From: a bacterium
Lineage (GTDB): Bacteria > Sysuimicrobiota > Sysuimicrobiia > Sysuimicrobiales > Humicultoraceae
DNA length: 10,448 nt
Assembly: GCA_041497675.1 (NCBI GenBank)
Contig: JBGQGY010000123.1
Location: 1-10,448 of the forward strand
Reading direction: 5' to 3'
Part shown: positions 1 through 10,448 of the stretch, piece after piece
Numbering within the stretch: the stretch's first letter is position 1
How the letters are laid out: every line of letters starts with the position of its first letter
Translations under genes and position numbers: made by a program
Notes under the pieces: model-generated
The model's input: only the letters and a program-made list of their open reading frames with translations
Told to the model about the DNA's origin: nothing
The model's database searches: none

Positions 1-316
1 AGAGCTTGCTGGACATTTCGAACACTTCGAGCAGTTCGGCGATCGTGCGTTCGCGCTCGCGCGTGTCGTTCGACCGGATCGCCGTGGACGCGCAGGTTTC
101 GAGATGATCTTCGAGGATCATCGCATTCACGCGGTCCAAGGCGCGCTGGATCGCCAACACCTGCCGCATCACGTCCACGCAGTACGCGCCGTCCTCGACC
201 ATCCGCTCGACGCCGCCCACGTGCCCGGCGACGCTGCGCAGCCGGGCCTGGATCTTCTGCCGCTTCTCCTTCGACCCGTGGGACCCGTGCCGGACAAGGG
301 GTATCGTGGCAGCCAT
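1..316 (-). CDS. csoR: CsoR/RcnR-family metal-sensitive transcriptional repressor, probably Cu(I)-sensing CsoR (stop codon at or beyond the window edge)
   Basis: Manual translation from ATG at 316: MAATIPLVRHGSHGSKEKRQKIQARLRSVAGHVGGVERMVEDGAYCVDVMRQVLAIQRALDRVNAMILEDHLETCASTAIRSNDTRERERTIAELLEVFEMSSKL (105 codons to position 2). It has the RL-x-x-(I/V)-x-G(H/Q) motif, Y45-C46, and H71-x3-C75, i.e. the x-C-H-C fingerprint. AGGAG SD lies about 9 nt upstream. It is absent from the ORF track because no stop lies inside the window. Confidence 0.93.
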   Translation of the reverse strand, partial: MAATIPLVRHGSHGSKEKRQKIQARLRSVAGHVGGVERMVEDGAYCVDVMRQVLAIQRALDRVNAMILEDHLETCASTAIRSNDTRERERTIAELLEVFEMSSKL

Positions 317-335
317 GAGCGCGTCTCCTGTCGTC

Positions 336-361
336 GACCCCCTCCCCTGGGGGGAGGGGTC
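336..361. promoter_or_regulatory. Putative CsoR operator (C-tract/G-tract inverted repeat)
   Basis: The sequence is GACCCCCTCCCCTGGGGGGAGGGGTC, with perfect 9-bp arms CCCCTCCCC (339-347) and GGGGAGGGG (351-359). It lies between the predicted transcription start and the SD. CsoR-family operators are typically C/G-tract pseudo-palindromes. Confidence 0.65.
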
Positions 362-368
362 AATTTCC

Positions 369-398
369 AGCATACCCCGTCCATGGAACTGTTGTCAA
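369..398 (-). promoter_or_regulatory. sigma70-type promoter of csoR
   Basis: On the minus strand: TTGACA (398-393), an 18-nt spacer, then TATGCT (374-369). This is a perfect -35 and a 4/6 -10 in very GC-rich DNA, about 53 nt upstream of the csoR ATG. Confidence 0.75.
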
Positions 399-503
399 CG
401 CTGGGCGCCTTCGTCTAGCGGCAAGCCGCATCCGGTTCGGCAGGGCGCCCTGAGGCAGTCAGCGAATCGCAGCAGAGAATTTCGTGAGCGAGGAGGCGAG
501 ATC

Positions 504-1769
504 ATGAGGACGCGCGTACTAGTCGGCATCGCGACCTGCCTGATCGCACTGGTGCTCGTGCCGGCGCACGCACAGGGCCCCGTCACGATCACCTGGTCGA
601 CGCTGGCAACCGGCGGGCCGAGTGTGTCAGACGTCTACCGGGCACTGGCGCTGCAGTTCGAACGACAGAATCCCAACGTCAGAGTGAATTTGCAGATACA
701 GCCGGGTACCTCCGGAGAACAATACAATCGATACGTGACGTTGTTCGCGGCCAAGGATGCCTCGGTGGACGTGATCTCGATCGACGTGATCTGGCCCGCC
801 CCGATGGCCGCGGCCGGCTGGCTCGCGCCCCTGGATCAATGGTTCTCGCGAGACAAACGCGAGGACTACCTGCCGGGCGCTATCCAGGCAAACATCATCG
901 GTGGCAAGATCTACGGCATCCCCTGGTACACGGATGCCGGGATGCTCTATTACCGCAAGGACCTCCTCCAAAAGCACAACGTGAAGGTCCCAACGACATG
1001 GGATGAATTGATCGCGAGCGCACAGCGCGTCGTCCAGGCCGAGAACAACCCTCAGTTGATGGGTTTCTTGTTCCAGGGCGCGCGGATCGAGGCCCTCGCC
1101 AACTTCTTCTTCGAGGTCCTCTGGAGTAACGGCGGCGATATCCTGGACGGCACCGGCAAGGTCGTCGTCGACAACGGCAAGGGTCAGGAGGCTGCCAACT
1201 TCATCCTCGATCTGATCCGCAAGCACAAGGTCACCCCGCAGGGCGTCACCACCCTGCCGACCGACGACACGCGGGCGGTGTTCCAGGACGGCCGTGTCGT
1301 GTTCATGCGCAACTGGACGTACGCGTACGGTCTCTTCCAGGGTGAGAACTCCAAAGTCGTGGACCGGGTCGGTATTGCGCCGCTCCCCAGGGGCAGCGCC
1401 GGCAGTGCATCTACCTTGGGCGGCTGGAACCTGGCGGTCAGCAACTTCTCACGCAACAAGGAGGTCGCCTTCCGCTTTGTCGAGTTCATGACCGGCGGCG
1501 TCGCGGAGAAAAGCATGGCGCTGCAGTTGAGCACGGTGCCGACGCGCAAGGATACGTTCGGCGATGCCGTGGTCAAGCAGAAGTCCCCCCACTACCCGGA
1601 CATGTTGAAGGTGGTTTTGAACGCGCGCCCGCGCCCGCAGATCGCCGACTACCCGCGGCTGTCGAGCATCGTGCAGACAAACCTGCACGCGGCGTTGACC
1701 AACCAGATCAGCGGCGATGAGGCGGTCACCCGCATAGCCCGGGAGATCCGGGGGCTGCTGAACCAGTAG
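504..1769 (+). CDS. Carbohydrate ABC transporter substrate-binding protein (family 1, trehalose/maltose-binding-like; SmoF-like)
   Basis: Start reassigned to ATG 504 because AGGAGG lies at 491-496 and a Sec signal peptide follows (MRTRVLVGIATCLIALVLVPAHA|Q). Motifs: DVIWPA, TDAGMLYYRKDLL, PTTWDEL, FMRNWTY, STLGGWNL, ARPRP. 421 aa. Confidence 0.93.
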   Translation: MRTRVLVGIATCLIALVLVPAHAQGPVTITWSTLATGGPSVSDVYRALALQFERQNPNVRVNLQIQPGTSGEQYNRYVTLFAAKDASVDVISIDVIWPAPMAAAGWLAPLDQWFSRDKREDYLPGAIQANIIGGKIYGIPWYTDAGMLYYRKDLLQKHNVKVPTTWDELIASAQRVVQAENNPQLMGFLFQGARIEALANFFFEVLWSNGGDILDGTGKVVVDNGKGQEAANFILDLIRKHKVTPQGVTTLPTDDTRAVFQDGRVVFMRNWTYAYGLFQGENSKVVDRVGIAPLPRGSAGSASTLGGWNLAVSNFSRNKEVAFRFVEFMTGGVAEKSMALQLSTVPTRKDTFGDAVVKQKSPHYPDMLKVVLNARPRPQIADYPRLSSIVQTNLHAALTNQISGDEAVTRIAREIRGLLNQ

Positions 1770-1782
1770 CGGTTCCCCGCGC

Positions 1783-2721
1783 ATGGCCGCGCCGTCGCTC
1801 GCCCTGGCGGGATCGGGATCGCGAACGGTCCGGCGGTGGCTGACGGGCCAGTTCACCGAGCCGGAACTGGCCGCGGTGCTGCTCCTACCCTGTTTCCTCT
1901 TCCTGGCCGTCTTCGCGCTGTATCCAATCGTCAGCGCGTTCTGGACCAGCCTGCACCAGTTGCGGCTGGACCAACCCCTGGTCGGCTTCCCGTTCATCGG
2001 GCTGCGCAACTTTGGTCGGGCTCTGGGCGACCCGGACGCCTGGCACGCGATCCGTGTCACGCTCATCTACACGGTTGTCACGGTCGCGTCGCAGTTCGTC
2101 TCTGGGCTGGGTATCGCGCTGGTGATCAATCGCATGGGCCGCGGCAAGGGGTTCGTGCGCACGGCCGCGTTGCTGCCGTGGACCATGGCTGCGATCCTCG
2201 TCGGCCAAATGTGGCGGTGGCTCTTCAACGATCAGGCCGGTGTGATCAACGATCTGCTGCACCGGGTCGGGCTGATCGATCAGCAGATCATCTGGCTGGG
2301 CGTGCCGATCCTCGCGTATGTGGCCGTCGTCGTCGCGGCGACCTGGAGCGCGGGTTCCTACATGGCGCTCATCCTGCTGGCCGGCCTCCAGGGGATTCCC
2401 GACGAGATGTATGAGGCCGCGGGCATCGACGGGGCCACGCCGGTACAGGCGTTCTTTGCCGTCACGCTGCCCATGCTGCGAAACGCCATCATGGTCTCGC
2501 TGGTGCTGCGGACCCTGGGGGCGCTTCAGGCCTTCGACCTGCCATTCCAGATGACCGGCGGCGGCCCGGGGAACGCCACCGAGACGTTTGCCCTCTTCAT
2601 CTACAAGAACACCTTTCAGTTTTTGGACTTTGGGTACGGCGCGGCGTTGTCGGTGATCCTGCTCTTTGTGGCCCTGGGGTTCGCGGGAACCTACTACCGC
2701 GTGCTCGCACCGAGAGACTGA
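1783..2721 (+). CDS. Carbohydrate ABC transporter permease (MalF/UgpA type)
   Basis: Multiple TM segments, FIGLRNF, EAA loop (LQGIPDEMYEAAGIDGA), MTGGGPGNATET and FGYGAALS. No strong SD, so the exact start is less certain. Confidence 0.92.
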   Translation: MAAPSLALAGSGSRTVRRWLTGQFTEPELAAVLLLPCFLFLAVFALYPIVSAFWTSLHQLRLDQPLVGFPFIGLRNFGRALGDPDAWHAIRVTLIYTVVTVASQFVSGLGIALVINRMGRGKGFVRTAALLPWTMAAILVGQMWRWLFNDQAGVINDLLHRVGLIDQQIIWLGVPILAYVAVVVAATWSAGSYMALILLAGLQGIPDEMYEAAGIDGATPVQAFFAVTLPMLRNAIMVSLVLRTLGALQAFDLPFQMTGGGPGNATETFALFIYKNTFQFLDFGYGAALSVILLFVALGFAGTYYRVLAPRD

Positions 2722-2724
2722 ACG

Positions 2725-3558
2725 ATGGCGGGACGCAGCCGGCTGGGGACGTACGGGTTCTACGCGCTCGTGGTATTGGTGGTCGTCTATTCGCTCGCGC
2801 CGTACGTGTGGACTGTCTTCACATCCTTGAAGACCGAGCGCGAACTCTACCAATTTCCGGTCACCTACGCTCCTCGCAGACCAACCATCAACAACTACGT
2901 ACAGGTCTTCATCCAGAACCCATTCGGGCGGTTTCTGCTGAACAGCGCCGTTGTGTCGGTGACGTCGACCCTGATCTGCCTGCTGATGGCGGCGCTGGCC
3001 GCCTACGCCTTTGCAAGGCTGACGTTCCCACGGAGCCAGGTTCTGCTGGTCGCCATCCTGATCGTGGCGATGATCCCGCTGATCACGGTCATCGTCCCCT
3101 TGTACATTCTGGTCAGGAACCTGGGACTGCTGAACACCTACTGGGGGTTGATGGCGCCGTACATCACCTACTCGCTGCCGGTGGCGATCTTTATCCTGTC
3201 GGCGTTCTTTCGCGAGATCCCGCGCGAGCTTGAGGAGGCGGCGCTCCTCGACGGATGTACCCGGCTCAACACCCTGTGGCGGGTGATCGCTCCGCTGTCG
3301 GCGCCGGGGTTGATCACCGCCGGCATCATCGTGTTCATCCAGACGTGGAACGAGTTCCTGGTGGCGCTGACGTTGACAAGCACCCCAGCGGTCCGCACGA
3401 TCACGGTGGGCATCGCGTTGTACCGGGGCGAGTTTGCCTTTCCGTGGGGCGTGATCTCGGCAGCCGTGATCCTCGCCACCATTCCGATCGTGACGCTGAT
3501 CTTGCTCGGACAGCGGCTGATCGTCCGCGGGCTGACCGCCGGGGCGGTCAAAGGGTGA
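2725..3558 (+). CDS. Carbohydrate ABC transporter permease (MalG/UgpE type)
   Basis: TSLK, LNS, AAYAFARL, LGLLNTYWGL, EAA loop (IPRELEEAALLDG), WNEF, and a C-terminal GLTAGAVKG. Confidence 0.94.
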   Translation: MAGRSRLGTYGFYALVVLVVVYSLAPYVWTVFTSLKTERELYQFPVTYAPRRPTINNYVQVFIQNPFGRFLLNSAVVSVTSTLICLLMAALAAYAFARLTFPRSQVLLVAILIVAMIPLITVIVPLYILVRNLGLLNTYWGLMAPYITYSLPVAIFILSAFFREIPRELEEAALLDGCTRLNTLWRVIAPLSAPGLITAGIIVFIQTWNEFLVALTLTSTPAVRTITVGIALYRGEFAFPWGVISAAVILATIPIVTLILLGQRLIVRGLTAGAVKG

Positions 3559-4889
3559 CACGGGTCGGGTTGGTGCCGATCGTCCGGCCGCTCTTCCGGG
3601 GCGCGCAGATGGGGTTGTGGGAGCGCAGCCAGCGGCTGCTTGCGGAGGCGGCGTCGCGGCTGGGGTTCTCACTGGCGTTTGCGTCGCCGCCGGTGGCCGA
3701 GGTCCATGAGGCGCGCGCGCAGGCCGAGGCCGCGGCCCGCGCTGATCTCGACCTGCTACTCGTGCAGCACGTGACGTTTGCCACCGGGGATCTGCTGGTT
3801 CCGTTTCTCGAACTGCCGCTGCCCCTCGGTCTGTGGGCGTTGCCCGAGGCCACGGCGTCGGGTCCCCTCCCGCAGAATGCACTATGCGGCCTCAACATGA
3901 GCATGAGCCTGCCGGTCAGGCGATCTGTGCCGGTCAAATGGTTTTACGGTGACCCTGCGGATGAGGCGTTCGAGCGGGCTCTCGAGGCGACGGTGCGGGC
4001 GCTCGCCGGGCGCCGTGCGGTGATGCGCGGGCGGCTTCTGTGGATCGGTGGCACGGCCCCCGGATTCTACGGGATCGAGACGAAGCCCGACCTCCCGTTG
4101 CAGATCGACGAGGCGCCGCTGGAGCGGTTCTTCGATGCGCTCGATGGTGTGACGCCGTCGGAGGTCGACGCGCGCCTGAAGGATGTCGACGAGGTGACCA
4201 CCTTTCCACGGTTGGATCTGCGCGCCTCCGTGCGGGTGGAGCTGGCGCTGGAGCGTCTCAGTCACGGATACGATGGAATTGCGCTGCGGTGTTGGCCGGA
4301 ACTCCCGGAGCGGACCGGCGCGATGGCCTGCGCCGCGTTCGCGCGCCTGGGCGACCGCGGACTTCCGCTCGCCTGCGAAGGCGATATCGGCGGGCTGGCG
4401 TCCATGCTCGCCGTGGCGGCGGTGACGCGCGGGCCGGCGGTGATGCTCGATCTTTCACACTCGCGGGAAGACGCGTTGTTGTTCTGGCACTGCGGCAACG
4501 CGCCGCGGGCCTGGGCCGGGGGTGAGACGAGGCTGACGCCGCACTTCAACCGGCAGATCCCCGCGGTACGCGACATGCGCCTGCGGCCGGGACCGGTGAG
4601 CGGCCTCCGGCTTCTGGAAGACCGCACGGCGGCGGTGTACAGCGGGCACGTTATGCCGCCTTCGGGAGGCTACGACGGCGTGTCGGGGTGGATCGGGGCG
4701 CTGCGCTGGGCCAGGAATCCGATCACGCCCCACGGATATGTCGCGACGGTGCTCAACCACCGGCTCCCCCACCACTTCATCTGGGGATTGGGTGATGAGC
4801 ACTCGGCGATGCTCGAATGCTGCGACTGGCTCGGCTACCGCGTGTTGCCCGCCGATCCCGAGCCACGGGTGGTCACATGGCCCGCGTAG
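3555..4889 (+). CDS. L-fucose/L-arabinose isomerase-superfamily sugar isomerase (SqvD/SftI sulfoquinovose isomerase-like)
   Basis: GTG start overlaps the permease stop (GTGA, 3555-3558); 444 aa. Motifs: QHVTFA, ALRCWP, ACEGD (E275), D299 exactly 24 residues later (the E337/D361 spacing of E. coli FucI), FWHCG, HFNR and a C-terminal PHH (metal His). Confidence 0.82.
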   Translation: MTRVGLVPIVRPLFRGAQMGLWERSQRLLAEAASRLGFSLAFASPPVAEVHEARAQAEAAARADLDLLLVQHVTFATGDLLVPFLELPLPLGLWALPEATASGPLPQNALCGLNMSMSLPVRRSVPVKWFYGDPADEAFERALEATVRALAGRRAVMRGRLLWIGGTAPGFYGIETKPDLPLQIDEAPLERFFDALDGVTPSEVDARLKDVDEVTTFPRLDLRASVRVELALERLSHGYDGIALRCWPELPERTGAMACAAFARLGDRGLPLACEGDIGGLASMLAVAAVTRGPAVMLDLSHSREDALLFWHCGNAPRAWAGGETRLTPHFNRQIPAVRDMRLRPGPVSGLRLLEDRTAAVYSGHVMPPSGGYDGVSGWIGALRWARNPITPHGYVATVLNHRLPHHFIWGLGDEHSAMLECCDWLGYRVLPADPEPRVVTWPA

Positions 4890-5767
4890 TCGCCCTTGGC
4901 ACCGCGAACGACGATCATCGTCTCTGGGTCAGACATTTCCCTCCAGACGCTCCCCGGACACGCGCCACGGACTACCTGGAGGATCTCGGCGGGCCGGCCG
5001 CCGTCGCGGCGCGCGCAGCGGCGCGGCTCGGCGGAGAGACGGTCTTTGTCGGGCGCCGTGGTGATGATGATGCGGGGCGCAAGCTGGAAGAGTGGCTCGC
5101 AGGCGACGGGGTGGACACGCGTTGGTTCGCTGCCACCCCCGCCGCGCGGACGCCGGTGAGCATCGTGCTCATCTCGCCGGATGGGGAGCGGCACATCTTC
5201 CACTACGCCGGCGAGGGGCTGCCGGAAGACGGCCACTGGGATCCGGACGCGCTGCTTGATCGGGTCGGCGTCGTGCTGGTCGACCTGCGGTGGCCCGCGG
5301 CCGCGACGCGTCTGGCCCGCGACGCCCGCGCGCGCGCGATACCCGTGGTCGTGGACATGGACAAAGATGTCCCCGAGGCCTGGTCGCTTGCCGCCTTGAG
5401 CACACACACGATCGCCGACGGCCTGATGGCCAAAGTCACTGGGGGCGTCGACCCCCTGCTGGCCCGCCTACACGATCTCGGTGTCTGGGGGGCGGTCACG
5501 GTTGGACGCGAGGGCGTGTGGTATCGTGGAGGCCACGTGCCGGCGTTTCCCGTGACGGTACGCGACAGCACGGGCGCCGGTGACGTCTTTCACGGCGCGT
5601 TCGCGCTGGCCCTGGCCGAGGGACGCCGGGAGGGCGACGCCCTGATCTTCGCCTCAGCGGCGGCGGCACTGCGTTGCGCGACTGCGGCGGTGCCGTACCG
5701 TCGAGACGTGGAGCGATTCCTGGAGGTCGGACATGCCGCACACCCCTCAGACCATCACGCCGGGTAA
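4877..5767 (+). CDS. PfkB-family carbohydrate kinase (sulfofructose kinase YihV-like)
   Basis: ATG 4877 overlaps the isomerase end by 13 nt; 296 aa. GGPAA..A.AAARLG, G.RGDD, DGER, DLRW, and the anion-hole motif DSTGAGDVFHGA (catalytic D236). Confidence 0.9.
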   Translation: MARVVALGTANDDHRLWVRHFPPDAPRTRATDYLEDLGGPAAVAARAAARLGGETVFVGRRGDDDAGRKLEEWLAGDGVDTRWFAATPAARTPVSIVLISPDGERHIFHYAGEGLPEDGHWDPDALLDRVGVVLVDLRWPAAATRLARDARARAIPVVVDMDKDVPEAWSLAALSTHTIADGLMAKVTGGVDPLLARLHDLGVWGAVTVGREGVWYRGGHVPAFPVTVRDSTGAGDVFHGAFALALAEGRREGDALIFASAAAALRCATAAVPYRRDVERFLEVGHAAHPSDHHAG

Positions 5768-6731
5768 GGCTCGGAGCCTCGCCCGGATCTCGGACGGCGA
5801 AGGACGCTACGCCGTCCTGGCCATCGATCAGCGATGGCAGCTCTTCGAGTTCATCAGCCGCCTGCTGGGCAAGCCGGCGGACGCGGTGGACGCGGAAACG
5901 GGCGAAGTCAAAGCCGTCCTGGCATCGGCGCTGGCCTCGAACGTCACGGGGCTGCTGGTGGATCCGTTCTGCGGCTACCATCGGGTGGTCCCGGATCTGC
6001 CTCGAAGTGTCGGCCTCTTGCTCACCATGGAAAACCACGAGTTCGTGACAGACTCCGACGGGCACCGCCGTAGCCTGCTGATGCCGGGGTGGAGTGTTGC
6101 CGCGGCCGTGCGTGCCGGCGCCGAAGCCTTGAAAGTGCTGGTGTGGTACCGGCATGATGCGCCGGCGCCGATCCGCGCGTTTCAGCGGGACTTCGTCCGC
6201 ACGATGGGTGACGACTGCCGCGCTGCCGATCGCCCCCTCGTGCTCGAGATCTTGCCGTATCGTCTGCCCGCGGAGACCGAAGCCGAGTACGCGCGCAGTC
6301 TGCCGCACCTGACAGTGGGTCTCGCCGAGGCGTTCGCCGACCCTGCCCTCCGCGTCGATCTCTACAAGCTGGCTTTGCCCGGTAGTCCGACCGGCGTCCG
6401 TGACTGGAACGGCAGTCTCTACGCTCTTGCCGATCTGCGCGCGCACATGACGCGGATCACAGATATGCTGCCCGCGCCGTGGGTGTTGTTGAGTGGCGGC
6501 ATGCCGTCGCATCAGTTCGTCGACGCGCTCCGGGCCGCGCTCGATGGTGGCGCGCGCGGTTACCTGGCGGGTCGAGCCGTGTGGTGGGAACCGCTGCAGG
6601 CCTACCCCGATCTCGCGGCCGTCAGGAGAAACCTCCGGACCAGCGGTCTGGCCACACTGGCGGCCCTGAACCGCGAGATCGAACGGCTACCGGCGCAGCG
6701 TCCCGACGCGTCGTGGCGCCTGGGGGGCTGA
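5733..6731 (+). CDS. Class I aldolase, tagatose-1,6-bisphosphate aldolase (LacD)/sulfofructosephosphate aldolase (YihT) family
   Basis: GGAGGT SD at 5722-5727. Motifs: VLAIDQR, ALKVLVWY, LVLEIL, DLYK (Schiff-base K212), PWVLLSGG and GYLAGRAVW. Confidence 0.9.
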   Translation: MPHTPQTITPGKARSLARISDGEGRYAVLAIDQRWQLFEFISRLLGKPADAVDAETGEVKAVLASALASNVTGLLVDPFCGYHRVVPDLPRSVGLLLTMENHEFVTDSDGHRRSLLMPGWSVAAAVRAGAEALKVLVWYRHDAPAPIRAFQRDFVRTMGDDCRAADRPLVLEILPYRLPAETEAEYARSLPHLTVGLAEAFADPALRVDLYKLALPGSPTGVRDWNGSLYALADLRAHMTRITDMLPAPWVLLSGGMPSHQFVDALRAALDGGARGYLAGRAVWWEPLQAYPDLAAVRRNLRTSGLATLAALNREIERLPAQRPDASWRLGG

Positions 6732-6733
6732 GC

Positions 6734-8818
6734 ATGGGGTTGGATCTCCGAGGATTCAGGCGGCTCGAGTCGCGCGCCACAAGCGACACCGGCGACGTCG
6801 ACGTGAGCGTGTATGCGCGCGGCATTGTCCGGTTGCGCGCCGGACCGGCTGTCGCCCATGACTACGGGCTCTTGGTGGGCCCGCCGCAGCCGCCGTCAGG
6901 CCCCGGAGCGGGGGATCTCGCGGCGCTCGACATCCTCCCTGCTCCCTTTCGCGTGCGGTTGTCGCGTGCCGGTCACATGGTGCTCGAATCGACCACGGAC
7001 GGCCACATCCGTGGTGGGCTGCGGGTACCCCCATTCGCGTTTCGTGCGCCGGACGAGGCCGGCGGTGCGGCGTGGATGGTGTCGTTTGCCCTGGACCGGG
7101 ATGAACCCGTCTACGGTCTCGGCGAGAAATTTGGATCCCTGAACCATCGGGGCCAGTTGATCACGTCGTGGAACGAAGACGCCTGGGGCGTGAACGGCGA
7201 AGCCTCGTACAAAAACGTGCCCTTTGCCTGGAGCCCCGCGGGATGGGGCGTGTTCGTGCACACGACGGCGCGGGTGCACCACGGCGTCGGCTATCCGCAA
7301 TGGTCCACCCGCAGCTATGTGCTGCGGGTGGACCATCCTACGTTAGATCTTTTTCTGTTCGCCGCGGAGACACCGGCCGGCCTGCTCGAGCGCTTCACAT
7401 ATCTGACCGGCCGCACGCCGCTGCCGCCCCGCTGGAGCTTTGGGGTGTGGATGTCGCGGTGCTACTATCGCACGGCCGGCGAGGCGATGGAGGCGGCGCG
7501 GATGTTGCGCGAGCGACACATCCCCTGCGACGTGCTGGTGCTCGATGGGCGGGCGTGGCTGAAGGTCGACACCCGCTTTGGGTTCGAGTGGGACGCCGAG
7601 CGGTATCCTGATCCGCCCGGTTTCATACGCGACCTGAAGGCGCTCGACTTTCGCCTGTGTCTGTGGGAGTACCCGTACGTCTCGGTCCATAACCCGCTGT
7701 TTGAGGATCTCGCCGGTAGGGGCTTTCTGCTGCGCGATCGGGCGGGGAAACCGTTTGTCTATCACTGGAGTTCCGAACCGTTCGCCACGCTGCTGACTCC
7801 CCTTCCTCCAAGCGGCATGATCGACTTCACACATCCCGGCGCATATGCCTGGTATCAGGATGCCCACCACGCGCTCTTCGCCGCCGGCGCCGACGTGATG
7901 AAGACCGACTTCGGCGAGCAGATCCCCGAGGATGTGGTGGCACACAACGGCGACAGTGGACACCGGCTCCACAACGTCTATCCCCTCCTCTACAATCGGT
8001 GCGTCTATGAGGCGACCGAGCGCTTCGGTGCCGGCGGCGCGATGGTCTGGGGACGATCAGGGTGGACAGGGAGCCAGCGGTACCCGGTGCAGTGGGGCGG
8101 CGATCCGCAAACGGACTGGGACGGTCTGGCGGCCAGCATTCGAGGCGCGCTGTCGTGGGGGATGTCTGGGGTTCCCTTCGGTACCCACGACATCGGCGGG
8201 TTCTACGGCGATCCCCCAGACGCCGAACTGTACGTCCGGTGGACGCAGGCGGGTGTGATGGCGTCGCATACGCGGTTTCACGGGACGTCTCCGCGCGAGC
8301 CGTGGCACTTCGGCGAGGAGGCCGAGCGGATCGTCCGTCGGTGGTTGGAGTGGCGCTACCGGTTGATTCCCTATCTGGAAGGGTGCGCGCTGGAGGCGCA
8401 GCGCACAGGGATGCCGGTCATGCGCGCCATGCCGCTGGCGTTCCCAGAAGATCGCGCGGCGTGGACCTTTGAGCACCAATACCTGTTTGGGGCCTCGTTG
8501 CTCGTCGCGCCGGTGTTGACGCCAGGCGGTGCTGTTCGCTTCTACCTACCCGCGGGTGGCTGGTACGATCTACAGTCGGGAGACCGGCTGGAAGGCCCTC
8601 GTGCGGTCGAGATGGTGATGCCGCTCGATGTGATGCCCTTGTATGGGCGCGAGGGATACGTACTGCCGCTGGGACCCGTCGCCCAGCACACGGGCGAACT
8701 GGATCCACAGCGGCCGCTCGAAGAGATCTGGGTCTTCGGTGACCAGAAAGAAGACCACAAGATCGATCTTCCCACCGGTGTCCGCGCGCGAATCTTTGCG
8801 TCCGAACGATCCGTCTAG
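6734..8818 (+). CDS. Glycoside hydrolase family 31, YicI alpha-xylosidase-like
   Basis: ATG 6734 lies 2 nt after the aldolase stop; 694 aa. YGLGEKF, SYKNVPF, LTGR..LPP.W.FG, nucleophile motif KTDFGE (D392), HNVYP, acid/base WGGD (D457), HDIGGF, and PVMRAM. Confidence 0.92.
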   Translation: MGLDLRGFRRLESRATSDTGDVDVSVYARGIVRLRAGPAVAHDYGLLVGPPQPPSGPGAGDLAALDILPAPFRVRLSRAGHMVLESTTDGHIRGGLRVPPFAFRAPDEAGGAAWMVSFALDRDEPVYGLGEKFGSLNHRGQLITSWNEDAWGVNGEASYKNVPFAWSPAGWGVFVHTTARVHHGVGYPQWSTRSYVLRVDHPTLDLFLFAAETPAGLLERFTYLTGRTPLPPRWSFGVWMSRCYYRTAGEAMEAARMLRERHIPCDVLVLDGRAWLKVDTRFGFEWDAERYPDPPGFIRDLKALDFRLCLWEYPYVSVHNPLFEDLAGRGFLLRDRAGKPFVYHWSSEPFATLLTPLPPSGMIDFTHPGAYAWYQDAHHALFAAGADVMKTDFGEQIPEDVVAHNGDSGHRLHNVYPLLYNRCVYEATERFGAGGAMVWGRSGWTGSQRYPVQWGGDPQTDWDGLAASIRGALSWGMSGVPFGTHDIGGFYGDPPDAELYVRWTQAGVMASHTRFHGTSPREPWHFGEEAERIVRRWLEWRYRLIPYLEGCALEAQRTGMPVMRAMPLAFPEDRAAWTFEHQYLFGASLLVAPVLTPGGAVRFYLPAGGWYDLQSGDRLEGPRAVEMVMPLDVMPLYGREGYVLPLGPVAQHTGELDPQRPLEEIWVFGDQKEDHKIDLPTGVRARIFASERSV

Positions 8819-9456
8819 CCCGCCCGCAGCGCGCTCCCGGCCCAGCCAATCCACACAATCGTCAGAAGAAACCCACCGAGCATGATCGGCGCCACACCTG
8901 CGGCAAAGAGCCCCAGCACGCCGAGAACGCCCGAGACGATGCCGACATAGGCCGCGCCAGCCGGCAGCACCTTCGTGTTGAGGATCGCCCATCCCGCGAG
9001 GATGGCGCCGACGCCGGTGAAAGCCCCGCCCAGCCCGTCGAAGGCCGCGCCGATCGCCGACAGGGTGGCCCAAGCTGCGGTGCCGCTGGCCTGATCCTTC
9101 GCGGCGAGATCGATGATCTGGCGCCCTCCCAACATCCAGATCGTCGAGCCAAGCGCGTAACTCGCCAGACCAATCAGAGAGATGTACAAGAAGGCTCTCG
9201 CTCGAGTCGGCGCGCCGTCCCGCAACCTGGTCGCGAGTCCCGTGACGAACAACACCGCAAAACCCGCTGCCAGAAGGCCGACGAATGCCGTCAGATTGAA
9301 GAGGCTCCACTTCTGCGTCGTCGCCGCCAGGCTTTTTGCGGGATCGCCTGGCGTCATAATGTCTTGTCCAAGAGCGAAGAAGAGGACGAAGAGTACAGCG
9401 AGGAGCACCGCCGTCACAAGACCGGCCGTTCCGCCGTTCTTTTGCACGCGGTCCAT
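8815..9456 (-). CDS. Multi-pass membrane protein of unknown function (DUF4386-like)
   Basis: Start reassigned to ATG 9456 because GGGAGGT SD lies just upstream; 213 aa with about 6 Gly/Ala-rich hydrophobic helices ending ...IVWIGWAG. The DUF4386 assignment is from overall resemblance only. Confidence 0.75.
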   Translation of the reverse strand: MDRVQKNGGTAGLVTAVLLAVLFVLFFALGQDIMTPGDPAKSLAATTQKWSLFNLTAFVGLLAAGFAVLFVTGLATRLRDGAPTRARAFLYISLIGLASYALGSTIWMLGGRQIIDLAAKDQASGTAAWATLSAIGAAFDGLGGAFTGVGAILAGWAILNTKVLPAGAAYVGIVSGVLGVLGLFAAGVAPIMLGGFLLTIVWIGWAGSALRAG

Positions 9457-9544
9457 CGCGCACCTCCCGGCGCGCTCATCCTCCATGGTGCGAGCGCGAC
9501 TATGGCAGCACTACGCGCTGCACCGGCGAATCCCTGTCGGCGGA

Positions 9545-10448
9545 TCAGCGTGGCGCGTGTCCGTGAGAGCGGGACGTCTGTTCGAGGAGTTTGGCGACGA
9601 GCGCCGTCCAGCCCGTTTGGTGGCTGGCGCCGAGCCCCTCGCCCGTGTCGCCGTGAAAGTACTCGTGGAACAACAGATAGTCTCGCCAGTACGGATCGCG
9701 CTGCAGGATCTCGTTCGCGCCGTACGCGGGCCGACGGCCGTCGGCGCCGCGCAGGAAGATGGCGATCAGCCGCTGTGAGAGGTCCTCGGCGATGTGCCAC
9801 AGCGTGCGCTTCGTCCCGCTCCCCGTGGGATGCTCGACCAGGAACTCGTCACCGTAGTAGTGATGGAACTTCTGCAGTGCCTCGATCAACAGGTAGTTGA
9901 TCGGGAACCAGATCGGCCCGCGCCAGTTGGAGTTGCCGCCGAACACCCCGGACGTCGACTCTCCGGGGTCGTATTGGACCACGTGATCCGTGCCGTCGAC
10001 GGTCAGCACGTACGGGTGCTGCACGTGGTACCGGCTGAGGGCGCGGACGCCGTAGTCGCTGAGGAACTCGGCGGGGTCGAGCATCCTCCGCAGCAGCCGC
10101 TTCATCCGGTGCCCGCGGGCCAGCGCGAGCAGCCGGCGGTCACCCTCCCCCGGCACGTGCCACCGCGAGACCAGACTCGCCAGGTGCGGGCGGTAGGTCA
10201 AGAACCACTCCATGCGCCTGCGGAAGTTCGGTAGGGCCTCGAGCAGGTCGGGTTCGATCGTCTCAACCGCCAGCAGTGGGATCAAACCGACCAGGGACCG
10301 GGCCTTGAGCCGCAGCGACCCGGCGTCCGTGTGCAACACGTCGTAGAAGAACTCGTCCTCGTCGTCCCAGAGCGCGATACCTTCGCCGCCGATGTTATTC
10401 AAGGCCCCGGCAATGTACATGAAGTGCTCAAAGAACTTTGTGGCGACG
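9545..10448 (-). CDS. Glycoside hydrolase family 63 (MGH1-like/mannosyl-oligosaccharide glucosidase-like), 5'-truncated by the window edge
   Basis: The frame stays open to the edge (..VATKFFEHFMYIA..). Motifs: LWDDEDEFFYD, RSLVGLIPL, EFLSDYGVRALS, GGNSNWRGPIWFPINY and FHEYFHGDTGEGLGASHQTGWT. Confidence 0.9.
   Translation of the reverse strand, partial: VATKFFEHFMYIAGALNNIGGEGIALWDDEDEFFYDVLHTDAGSLRLKARSLVGLIPLLAVETIEPDLLEALPNFRRRMEWFLTYRPHLASLVSRWHVPGEGDRRLLALARGHRMKRLLRRMLDPAEFLSDYGVRALSRYHVQHPYVLTVDGTDHVVQYDPGESTSGVFGGNSNWRGPIWFPINYLLIEALQKFHHYYGDEFLVEHPTGSGTKRTLWHIAEDLSQRLIAIFLRGADGRRPAYGANEILQRDPYWRDYLLFHEYFHGDTGEGLGASHQTGWTALVAKLLEQTSRSHGHAPR

Follow-up and report, generated by a model that had tools for sequence, protein, structure and literature searches.

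Which sugar is taken up and broken down by the seven genes that lie at positions 504-8818 of the + strand of the window, by which we mean the whole 10,448-base stretch analysed here, itself one entire contig (JBGQGY010000123.1) of a 3.97 Mb bacterial genome that is 98.6% complete? The RpoB protein of this genome has its closest named relatives among sequences from Armatimonadota metagenome-assembled genomes (MAGs), at 90-91% identity. On sequence comparison the operon probably codes for the first half of a sulfoglycolytic pathway of Embden-Meyerhof-Parnas type (sulfo-EMP), with sulfoquinovose as substrate, in an Armatimonadota genome. A substrate-binding protein and two permeases would import a sulfoquinovose glycoside, probably sulfoquinovosyl glycerol, with the ATPase for the importer presumably encoded elsewhere, and a cytoplasmic glycosidase of family GH31 would release sulfoquinovose. 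An isomerase with the AraA/FucI fold would then convert sulfoquinovose to sulfofructose, a YihV-like PfkB kinase would phosphorylate sulfofructose to sulfofructose-1-phosphate, and a LacD-like class I aldolase would split that product into dihydroxyacetone phosphate and sulfolactaldehyde. The same sequence of uptake, glycoside cleavage, isomerization, 1-phosphorylation and class I aldol cleavage was put forward in the first-pass annotation of this DNA, and it holds as the best reading, mainly from the context of the operon in relatives. What is observed here is which genes are present, their folds and families, the patterns of residues and the context shared with relatives, and from these we infer every substrate assignment.

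The listing of open reading frames and family scans confirm the initial description of seven overlapping or abutting genes, the first start falling at 504 and the last stop at 8818, with gaps or overlaps of no more than 35 nt. A CUT1-type ATP-binding cassette (ABC) substrate-binding protein, proposed to bind sulfoquinovosyl glycerol or sulfoquinovose (504..1769; Pfam SBP_bac_1, 166 bits), has a signal-peptide-like N-terminus and a GGAGG sequence 7 nt before its ATG, and is followed by ABC permease 1 (1783..2721; Pfam BPD_transp_1, NCBIfam UgpA/MalF-like) and ABC permease 2 (2725..3558; Pfam BPD_transp_1, NCBIfam GlcU/MalG-like). The aldose-ketose isomerase of AraA/FucI fold, the candidate for conversion of sulfoquinovose to sulfofructose (3555..4889; remote NCBIfam SftI match, GTG start), overlaps permease 2 by 4 nt and the PfkB kinase, a candidate sulfofructose 1-kinase (4877..5767; Pfam PfkB, 115 bits), by 13 nt. 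The kinase gene in turn overlaps by 35 nt that of the class I DeoC/LacD-family aldolase, a candidate sulfofructose-1-phosphate aldolase (5733..6731; Pfam DeoC, NCBIfam PRK12858), and the operon closes with the GH31 glycosidase, a member of a YicI-like clade with the motif DGRAW and a candidate sulfoquinovosidase (6734..8818; three GH31 Pfam domains). All seven genes are on the + strand with intact reading frames and conserved catalytic residues, and the family scans find no ABC ATPase gene among them. The G+C fraction is about 0.70 across the isomerase, kinase and aldolase genes (3500-6500) compared with 0.62-0.66 in the transporter genes, the GH31 gene and the flanks. A scan for promoters and terminators on the + strand upstream of the operon gave nothing usable.

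The strongest evidence for a sulfosugar substrate is the conserved context in relatives. The conserved synteny that the first-pass annotation proposed to look for in other genomes is present: the isomerase-kinase-aldolase module recurs among 47 loci retrieved via the isomerase (tblastn, E<=1e-8, >=40% of the query, within 9 kb), and the gene order is not due to chance. Many of these loci end at contig edges and the counts are therefore lower bounds. The isomerase occurs in at least 46 loci, permease 2 in at least 40, permease 1 in at least 38, the kinase in at least 36, the substrate-binding protein in at least 35, the aldolase in at least 25 and the GH31 glycosidase in at least 11. Beside them stand genes for a SuyA-like small SAF protein and a SuyB-like UxaA-family large subunit (each in at least 26 of the 47), a D-2-hydroxyacid dehydrogenase (at least 24), an Ldh_2 dehydrogenase (at least 23) and a divergent GntR/FCD regulator (at least 27). 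The Ldh_2 protein is ComC-like, its best NCBIfam match being L-sulfolactate dehydrogenase at 197 bits, below the cut-off of 500. The SuyB-like protein of Meiothermus shares 58% identity, across 97% of its length, with the product of a UxaA-family gene that follows hpsN-hpsO on a Cupriavidus pinatubonensis plasmid; we take this UxaA-family pair to be the SuyAB of the dihydroxypropanesulfonate pathway (Mayer et al. 2010). The set of SuyAB-like and dehydrogenase genes in the relatives matches the route described in PMC12421959, in which the SlcC/ComC racemase and the SuyAB lyase convert S-sulfolactate to pyruvate and sulfite.

The identity of the glycosidase in these loci is consistent with the same substrate. 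The complete seven-gene order is found on plasmid pDEIPE01 of Deinococcus peraridilitoris DSM 19664, flanked by divergent genes for a GabD-like dehydrogenase and a GntR regulator and by an AEC transporter gene. The Meiothermus-type loci lack GH31, and six of them carry a Gfo/Idh/MocA protein, with no overlap between these six loci and the 11 that have GH31. The one copy of the six that was compared with the PDB, from Meiothermus taiwanensis DSM 14542 (L018:15685-16902, - strand), matches entries 8zn9, 8qc2 and 8qc3 at 210-219 bits, the next match scoring 71; these entries occur in papers on GH188 NAD-dependent sulfoquinovosidases. A 452-residue protein without a family match is encoded between the Gfo/Idh/MocA gene and the aldolase gene (L018:13188-14546, - strand), and is present in several Meiothermus loci.

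Several other loci depart from this pattern. In two MAGs labelled as Thermotogae and Bipolaricaulia (L006, 13265-14767, and L007) the usual place of GH31, directly after the aldolase, is taken by an NAD-dependent glycosidase of family GH4, and genes for a sulfatase and for a sulfite-oxidase-like molybdoenzyme lie nearby. The substrates of GH4 enzymes are 6-phospho-glycosides, and the one here could represent another type of sulfoquinovosidase. Trueperaceae and related MAGs (L039, L041, L042, L044, L045, L024) have a divergent cluster in which kinase and aldolase are 33-38% identical to those of the window and the aldolase gene is followed by two Gfo/Idh/MocA genes with 3ezy as best PDB match; upstream in L039 are a CoA-transferase gene and a sugar-phosphate-isomerase-like TIM-barrel gene. 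This Trueperaceae-type cluster may have a different substrate.

Among the proteins of the window itself, the kinase has a characterized sulfosugar enzyme as its best solved relative. The first-pass annotation had assigned the parts of the operon to a YihV-like kinase, an SqvD-like isomerase, a YihT/LacD-like aldolase and a SmoF-like ABC system, with a glycosidase expected to be of YihQ/YicI type. The best PDB match of the kinase is the sulfofructose kinase YihV (7ag6, 139.5 bits, with the runner-up at 98.7), and its identity to E. coli YihV is 36%. The residues of YihV that bind the sulfonate are K27, N109 and R138 (PMC8006165). At these positions the window kinase has R27, H109 and R138, so that R138 is kept and K27 is replaced by a residue that is still cationic, whereas in E. 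coli ribokinase the positions of K27 and R138 are taken by T30 and E143. All seven of the cluster kinases inspected have Arg at both cationic positions of the triad. The segment TGAGDVFHG aligns with YihV D244 and supplies the catalytic Asp in the GXGD motif of the PfkB fold, a residue common to both enzymes.

The labels of the next two enzymes stand only in part. The isomerase has a single family match, to the NCBIfam model SftI 'sulfoquinovose isomerase' (NF048012; E 1.9e-25), with a score of 89.5 bits against an equivalog cut-off of 700. It has no Pfam match, and hence none to PF02952, and no PDB sequence match, so it falls outside SftI/SqvD as these are defined. An AlphaFold2 model built from 12 homologues (pLDDT 88.7) has L-arabinose and L-fucose isomerases as its top Foldseek matches (TMq 0.71-0.80), which places it in the FucI/AraA fold superfamily with SftI/SqvD; no SqvB mutarotase gene lies near it. 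From model and family match together, the protein stands as a predicted aldose-ketose isomerase and a remote relative of SftI, the SqvD-like designation being correct as to fold and superfamily and too close as to distance. Its homologues come from Armatimonadota, Deinococcota, Trueperaceae and other MAGs. The aldolase is LacD-like and class I, as proposed, with the YihT half of its label the weaker. It exceeds the NCBIfam PRK12858 cut-off (215 bits against 184), and its PDB matches are 8tnf, an unnamed DUF2090 protein and its best solved relative, at 183 bits, LacD at about 98 and YihT at 65-69. The predicted Schiff-base Lys K212, together with R281 and S254, aligns with K193, R253 and S226 of YihT, and YihT S227 is replaced by Gly.

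For the importer, the SmoF-like label describes a relative better than it describes the window. The substrate-binding protein matches Thermotoga MalE3 at 335 bits, Thermococcus TMBP at 277 and SmoF, which binds sulfoquinovosyl glycerol in Agrobacterium and is its third-best PDB match, at 246; for its copy in a Deinococcus MAG, SmoF is the best match at 398 bits against 262. In SmoF the sulfonate pocket is formed by Q12-S43-G166-T220, and further residues bind the gluco-configured 2-, 3- and 4-hydroxyls (PMC8940949). The window protein belongs to the same substrate-binding protein subfamily as the Agrobacterium protein and conserves the hydroxyl-binding SmoF residues D67, D113, W276 and R345, as do MalE3 and TMBP. 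In the sulfonate pocket T220 corresponds to T253 within TDDTR (Glu in MalE3) and S43 to S70, G166 is replaced by A197, and the region of Q12/H13 is unaligned.

For the glycosidase, the YihQ part of the expectation was not borne out: the enzyme is YicI/SqgH-like and not YihQ-like. It scores 491 bits with the NCBIfam alpha-xylosidase model (cut-off 606) compared with 238 for the YihQ model, its PDB matches are 5f7c (405 bits), YicI (374) and YihQ (168), and it is 38% identical to the alpha-xylosidase YicI. In a MAFFT alignment with E. coli YihQ the catalytic pair D405 and D472 is kept as D392 and D457. Two features separate the window enzyme from YicI. Where YicI has D-C-F-W it has D-G-R-A-W, that is, an inserted Arg (R273) at the site of YicI C307/F308, and there is an eight-residue insertion (…LLTPLP…). 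We take C307 and F308 to govern the position of substrate C6 in YicI from older mutagenesis, which a literature search did not confirm. The Arg of DGR(A/S)W is present in 121 of 121 clade members, comprising the 120 best database homologues and the Deinococcus copy, and is absent from YicI. An exhaustive search gave, in its 150 best representatives, 11 with DGR[A/T]W at the equivalent site, a twelfth match to the expression lying elsewhere in its protein; eight of the 11 are among the 19 best, and the other three are truncated proteins of lower rank. Members of the clade with this motif include proteins of the thermoacidophilic red alga Galdieria (P0244, annotated as an alpha-xylosidase) and of Limnochorda pilosa (P0243).

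A precedent for such an enzyme is SqgH of Alteromonas macleodii, a GH31 sulfoquinovosidase reported in 2025 that lies next to subfamily 3, that of YicI, lacks the arginine-tryptophan-tyrosine (RWY) motif of YihQ and is inactive on p-nitrophenyl (PNP) xyloside and PNP-glucoside (PMC12780224). Its predicted binding residues are R302, T377, K412 and F513, and its clade is placed beside GH31_3 and GH31_6 (PMC12780224). In the window enzyme R273, T355, K390 and F490 are spaced 82/35/100, compared with 75/35/101 in SqgH, as judged by residue spacing without an alignment; K390 and F490 are also found in YicI. Both proteins are near GH31_3 and without RWY, both keep the Asp-Asp pair, both have Arg, Thr, Lys and Phe at compatible spacing, and neither has a signal peptide, according to PMC12780224 for SqgH and by eye from the translation for the window protein. 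By these comparisons the window GH31 resembles SqgH, the second GH31 sulfoquinovosidase clade. SqgH is reported only from marine Gammaproteobacteria, where it adjoins the pathway termed sulfo-SDO (PMC12780224), and the host of the window is an Armatimonadota bacterium. No Alteromonas protein appeared in a tblastn search of the GH31 sequence against plasmids or in a cluster look-up of 10 representatives, and the 120 best database homologues were without exception nearer relatives.

The operon was described at first as mosaic, in the sense of parts drawn from different known pathways, and the word fits more literally than was meant. A genome of the same genus (G001; L058, G001:C222) is collinear with window positions 1-454, 4876-6717 and 8815-9243, sharing the CsoR-like gene, a putative 28-nt leader element (427..454, + strand), the kinase and aldolase genes at 81% nucleotide identity, and the DUF4386 gene. 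The leader lies upstream of the whole operon in the window and is 96% identical to a stretch directly upstream of the kinase gene in G001, where the block of substrate-binding protein, two permeases and isomerase is cleanly missing, as is the GH31 gene. A multihaem cytochrome c gene stands upstream at the G001 site instead. The isomerase is not found elsewhere in this genome, which is 91% complete. Other combinations occur more distantly. G026, of another family in the same order, has the substrate-binding protein, both permeases, isomerase, kinase and GH31; its cluster contains no aldolase gene. Four Fervidifonticultor-type Armatimonadota loci (L003, L005, L009, L043) combine GntR, SuyAB-like and aldehyde dehydrogenase genes with the substrate-binding protein, two permeases, isomerase and GH31; in a fifth (L002) only the part from substrate-binding protein to GH31 is visible, its upstream flank not having been recovered. 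Kinase and aldolase homologues were not found at E<=1e-20 in the five Fervidifonticultor-type genomes (G031-G035), whose completeness is not given, and sulfofructose would thus be cleaved otherwise there, perhaps by a transaldolase. The kinase is patchy overall: a search of 30 other related genomes at E<=1e-30 found it in 3.

A number of observations weigh against a sulfoquinovose pathway in this organism. The largest gap concerns the fate of sulfolactaldehyde. The clusters of relatives do carry sulfolactaldehyde-type enzymes or an exporter, but the window has no sulfolactaldehyde reductase or dehydrogenase and no sulfonate exporter, and so does not encode a complete sulfo-EMP pathway; a mutarotase and a dedicated regulator are missing from it as well. 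The source genome as a whole has no SuyAB homologue, and its best candidates are generic aldehyde dehydrogenases of <=40% identity and a YihU-like reductase at 35%. Three candidate sulfolactaldehyde enzymes elsewhere in the genome were rejected, their contexts being peptide/amidohydrolase, choline-kinase/EamA and CoA-transferase/thiolase genes. No operon protein reaches the curated equivalog cut-off for a sulfosugar enzyme. YihV N109 is not conserved, the cluster kinases having H, P or R instead. The aldolase is only 27% identical to YihT, and the residues that match YihT do not discriminate, because they are also expected in LacD enzymes. The substrate-binding protein is nearer to maltose and trehalose binders than to SmoF. 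In the GH31 enzyme the YihQ-type (GH31_13) sulfonate pocket R301-W304-Y508, which is accompanied by Q288 or E (PMC8006165; PMC12780224), is missing: R301 lies opposite a gap when the protein is aligned with E. coli YihQ, and both W304 and Y508 are replaced by F. The comparison with SqgH is one of residue spacing only; the distance from Arg to Lys is 117 in the window enzyme and 110 in SqgH, and across the 121 clade members the T355 column contains 68 P, 45 T and 7 S. Since G001 has kinase and aldolase without isomerase, transporter or GH31, this pair may serve another substrate. The Trueperaceae variants, with kinases and aldolases at 36-38% identity, lack SuyAB, and their neighbours are not SqgA-like.

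These points suggest what else the operon might do. It could serve catabolism of a neutral or unusual alpha-glycoside, in which GH31 would liberate a rare hexose, 6-deoxyhexose or pentose, and isomerization, phosphorylation at C1 and cleavage would convert it to dihydroxyacetone phosphate and a neutral aldehyde by the logic of fucose or rhamnose pathways. The proximity of GH31 to YicI and of the substrate-binding protein to maltose and trehalose binders, the higher score of the aldolase with LacD than with YihT and the lack of any sulfonate-handling gene in the source genome all favour such a substrate, and in the relatives a SuyAB-like dehydratase with two 2-hydroxyacid dehydrogenases could in principle process glycerate. 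We nevertheless regard it as unlikely. The kinase is closest to YihV and has Arg where ribokinase has Glu, the C307/F308 pair of YicI is replaced in the GH31 enzyme by G-R-A, invariant in all 121 clade members, and the clusters of relatives include a SuyB 58% identical to that of an hpsN/hpsO cluster, a GH188 homologue, a SmoF-like substrate-binding protein and a sulfite-oxidase-like enzyme. A sulfonated sugar other than sulfoquinovose, for example sulfofucose by way of a sulfotagatose route, would suit an aldolase of the tagatose-bisphosphate aldolase family; LacD enzymes are loose with respect to stereochemistry at C3 and C4. Sulfofucose catabolism coupled to SlcC/ComC-SuyAB does exist in Paracoccus, but the route published there is of Entner-Doudoroff type and isomerase-free (PMC12421959). 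The residues with which SmoF recognizes gluco-configured hydroxyls are kept in the window protein, and the relatives carry homologues of SmoF and of the GH188 protein SqgA, both of which handle sulfoquinovose glycosides, which makes another sulfosugar improbable.

The operon might also be incomplete or in decay, a patchwork with which this bacterium can no longer grow on any sulfosugar. No sulfolactaldehyde enzyme, exporter, regulator or ATPase is recognizable nearby, the distribution of the kinase is patchy and G001 retains only kinase and aldolase; set against this are seven intact and tightly coupled frames with conserved catalytic residues, and a shared ATPase could fill in, as could a generic reductase or aldehyde dehydrogenase, several of the latter being encoded in the genome. 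Decay is accordingly a very improbable account.

How does the proposed pathway relate to those already in print? Compared with sulfo-EMP of E. coli, the operon has no YihS, YihR, YihU, CsqR or major facilitator superfamily (MFS) transporter. It is not sulfo-EMP2 either, because that pathway combines SqvD with a kinase of the PfkA family and an aldolase of class II (PMC9594981, Wei et al. 2022). The closest counterparts are hybrid sulfo-EMP1/2 clusters, which are reported from Proteobacteria, Actinobacteria and Firmicutes and were called mosaic (PMC10665668, Sharma et al. 2023), which are also described in PMC9594981 and PMC13372026 (ISME J 2026), and of which a Vibrio example was confirmed by proteomics and knockout (PMC13372026). 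As far as these descriptions go, the hybrid pathways and the operon would share the same intermediates, from sulfoquinovose to dihydroxyacetone phosphate and sulfolactaldehyde, and both replace YihS by an isomerase of the FucI superfamily, alongside a PfkB kinase and a PF01791 aldolase of class I; they differ in that the operon occurs in Armatimonadota and its relatives come from Deinococcota and further MAG lineages, and in a glycosidase that is not YihQ. ABC importers of SmoF type are known in sulfo-EMP clusters (PMC8940949; PMC8873060), as are tandem sulfoglycolysis and SuyAB pathways (PMC12421959). The first-pass suggestion of an undescribed combination is thereby weakened, hybrid sulfo-EMP1/2 having appeared in print from 2021 to 2026, although the exact gene set, or its presence in these phyla, was not found in the searched literature, whose coverage stops short of the figures and supplements that list hybrid combinations. 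Two 2026 papers (PMC13436972, a review, and PMC13372026) do not mention the phyla Deinococcota or Armatimonadota, and the literature search returned no link between sulfoquinovose catabolism and Meiothermus, Deinococcota or Armatimonadota. Each enzyme type and the hybrid principle are already known. The apparent novelty lies in the exact set, in the divergent clades of isomerase and aldolase, in a YicI-like glycosidase that has an inserted Arg, and in the host phyla.

The genes that flank the operon look unrelated to it. Upstream on the - strand is a CsoR/RcnR-like metal-sensing repressor (2-373); a partial frame on the opposite strand (2-418, +), considered as the end of an aldehyde dehydrogenase by comparison with the Fervidifonticultor loci, was rejected for want of a family match. 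Downstream, both on the - strand, are a DUF4386 membrane protein (8815-9486), whose stop overlaps that of GH31 by 4 nt, and a GH63/MGH1-like hydrolase of which the C-terminal part is present (9545-10447).

An important consequence of these relationships is that such clusters are easily overlooked. Sulfoquinovose, the plant sulfosugar, ranks among the organosulfur compounds of greatest abundance, and surveys of its degraders use marker genes, chiefly YihQ with RWY, plus YihS or SqvD and YihT or SqiA, all of which would miss this cluster. The expectation that routine annotation hides the pathway is borne out by a cultured relative, whose copies are named 'L-fucose isomerase', 'PfkB family carbohydrate kinase' and 'tagatose 1,6-diphosphate aldolase', and by GH31 homologues named 'alpha-D-xyloside xylohydrolase' by the Joint Genome Institute (JGI). 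Such names are uninformative because neither YihT nor YihV has a model in NCBIfam: even for E. coli YihT the best match is the 'tagatose 1,6-diphosphate aldolase' model (PRK12858), and for YihV it is ribokinase.

A broader interpretation, to which we give even chances, is that the DGR[A/T]W clade of GH31 consists of widespread unrecognized sulfoquinovosidases, arising either as an extension of SqgH or as a third GH31 origin. With the divergent isomerase it would form an exchangeable front end placed on different back ends, namely kinase and aldolase in the window, neither of them in the Fervidifonticultor-type genomes, and full SuyAB-based desulfonation in Meiothermus, so that heterotrophs of thermophilic mats, from phyla for which sulfoglycolysis has not been reported before, would mineralize sulfoquinovose completely. 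The clade in this interpretation ranges over Armatimonadota, Chloroflexota, Deinococcota and Limnochorda, with a homologue in Galdieria. If the sulfoquinovose assignment is correct, sulfoglycolysis would reach Armatimonadota and Deinococcota, including the cultured carriers Meiothermus taiwanensis DSM 14542, Calidithermus chliarophilus DSM 9957 and D. peraridilitoris DSM 19664, and the invariant Arg of the DGRAW clade would be a new marker for sulfoquinovosidases.

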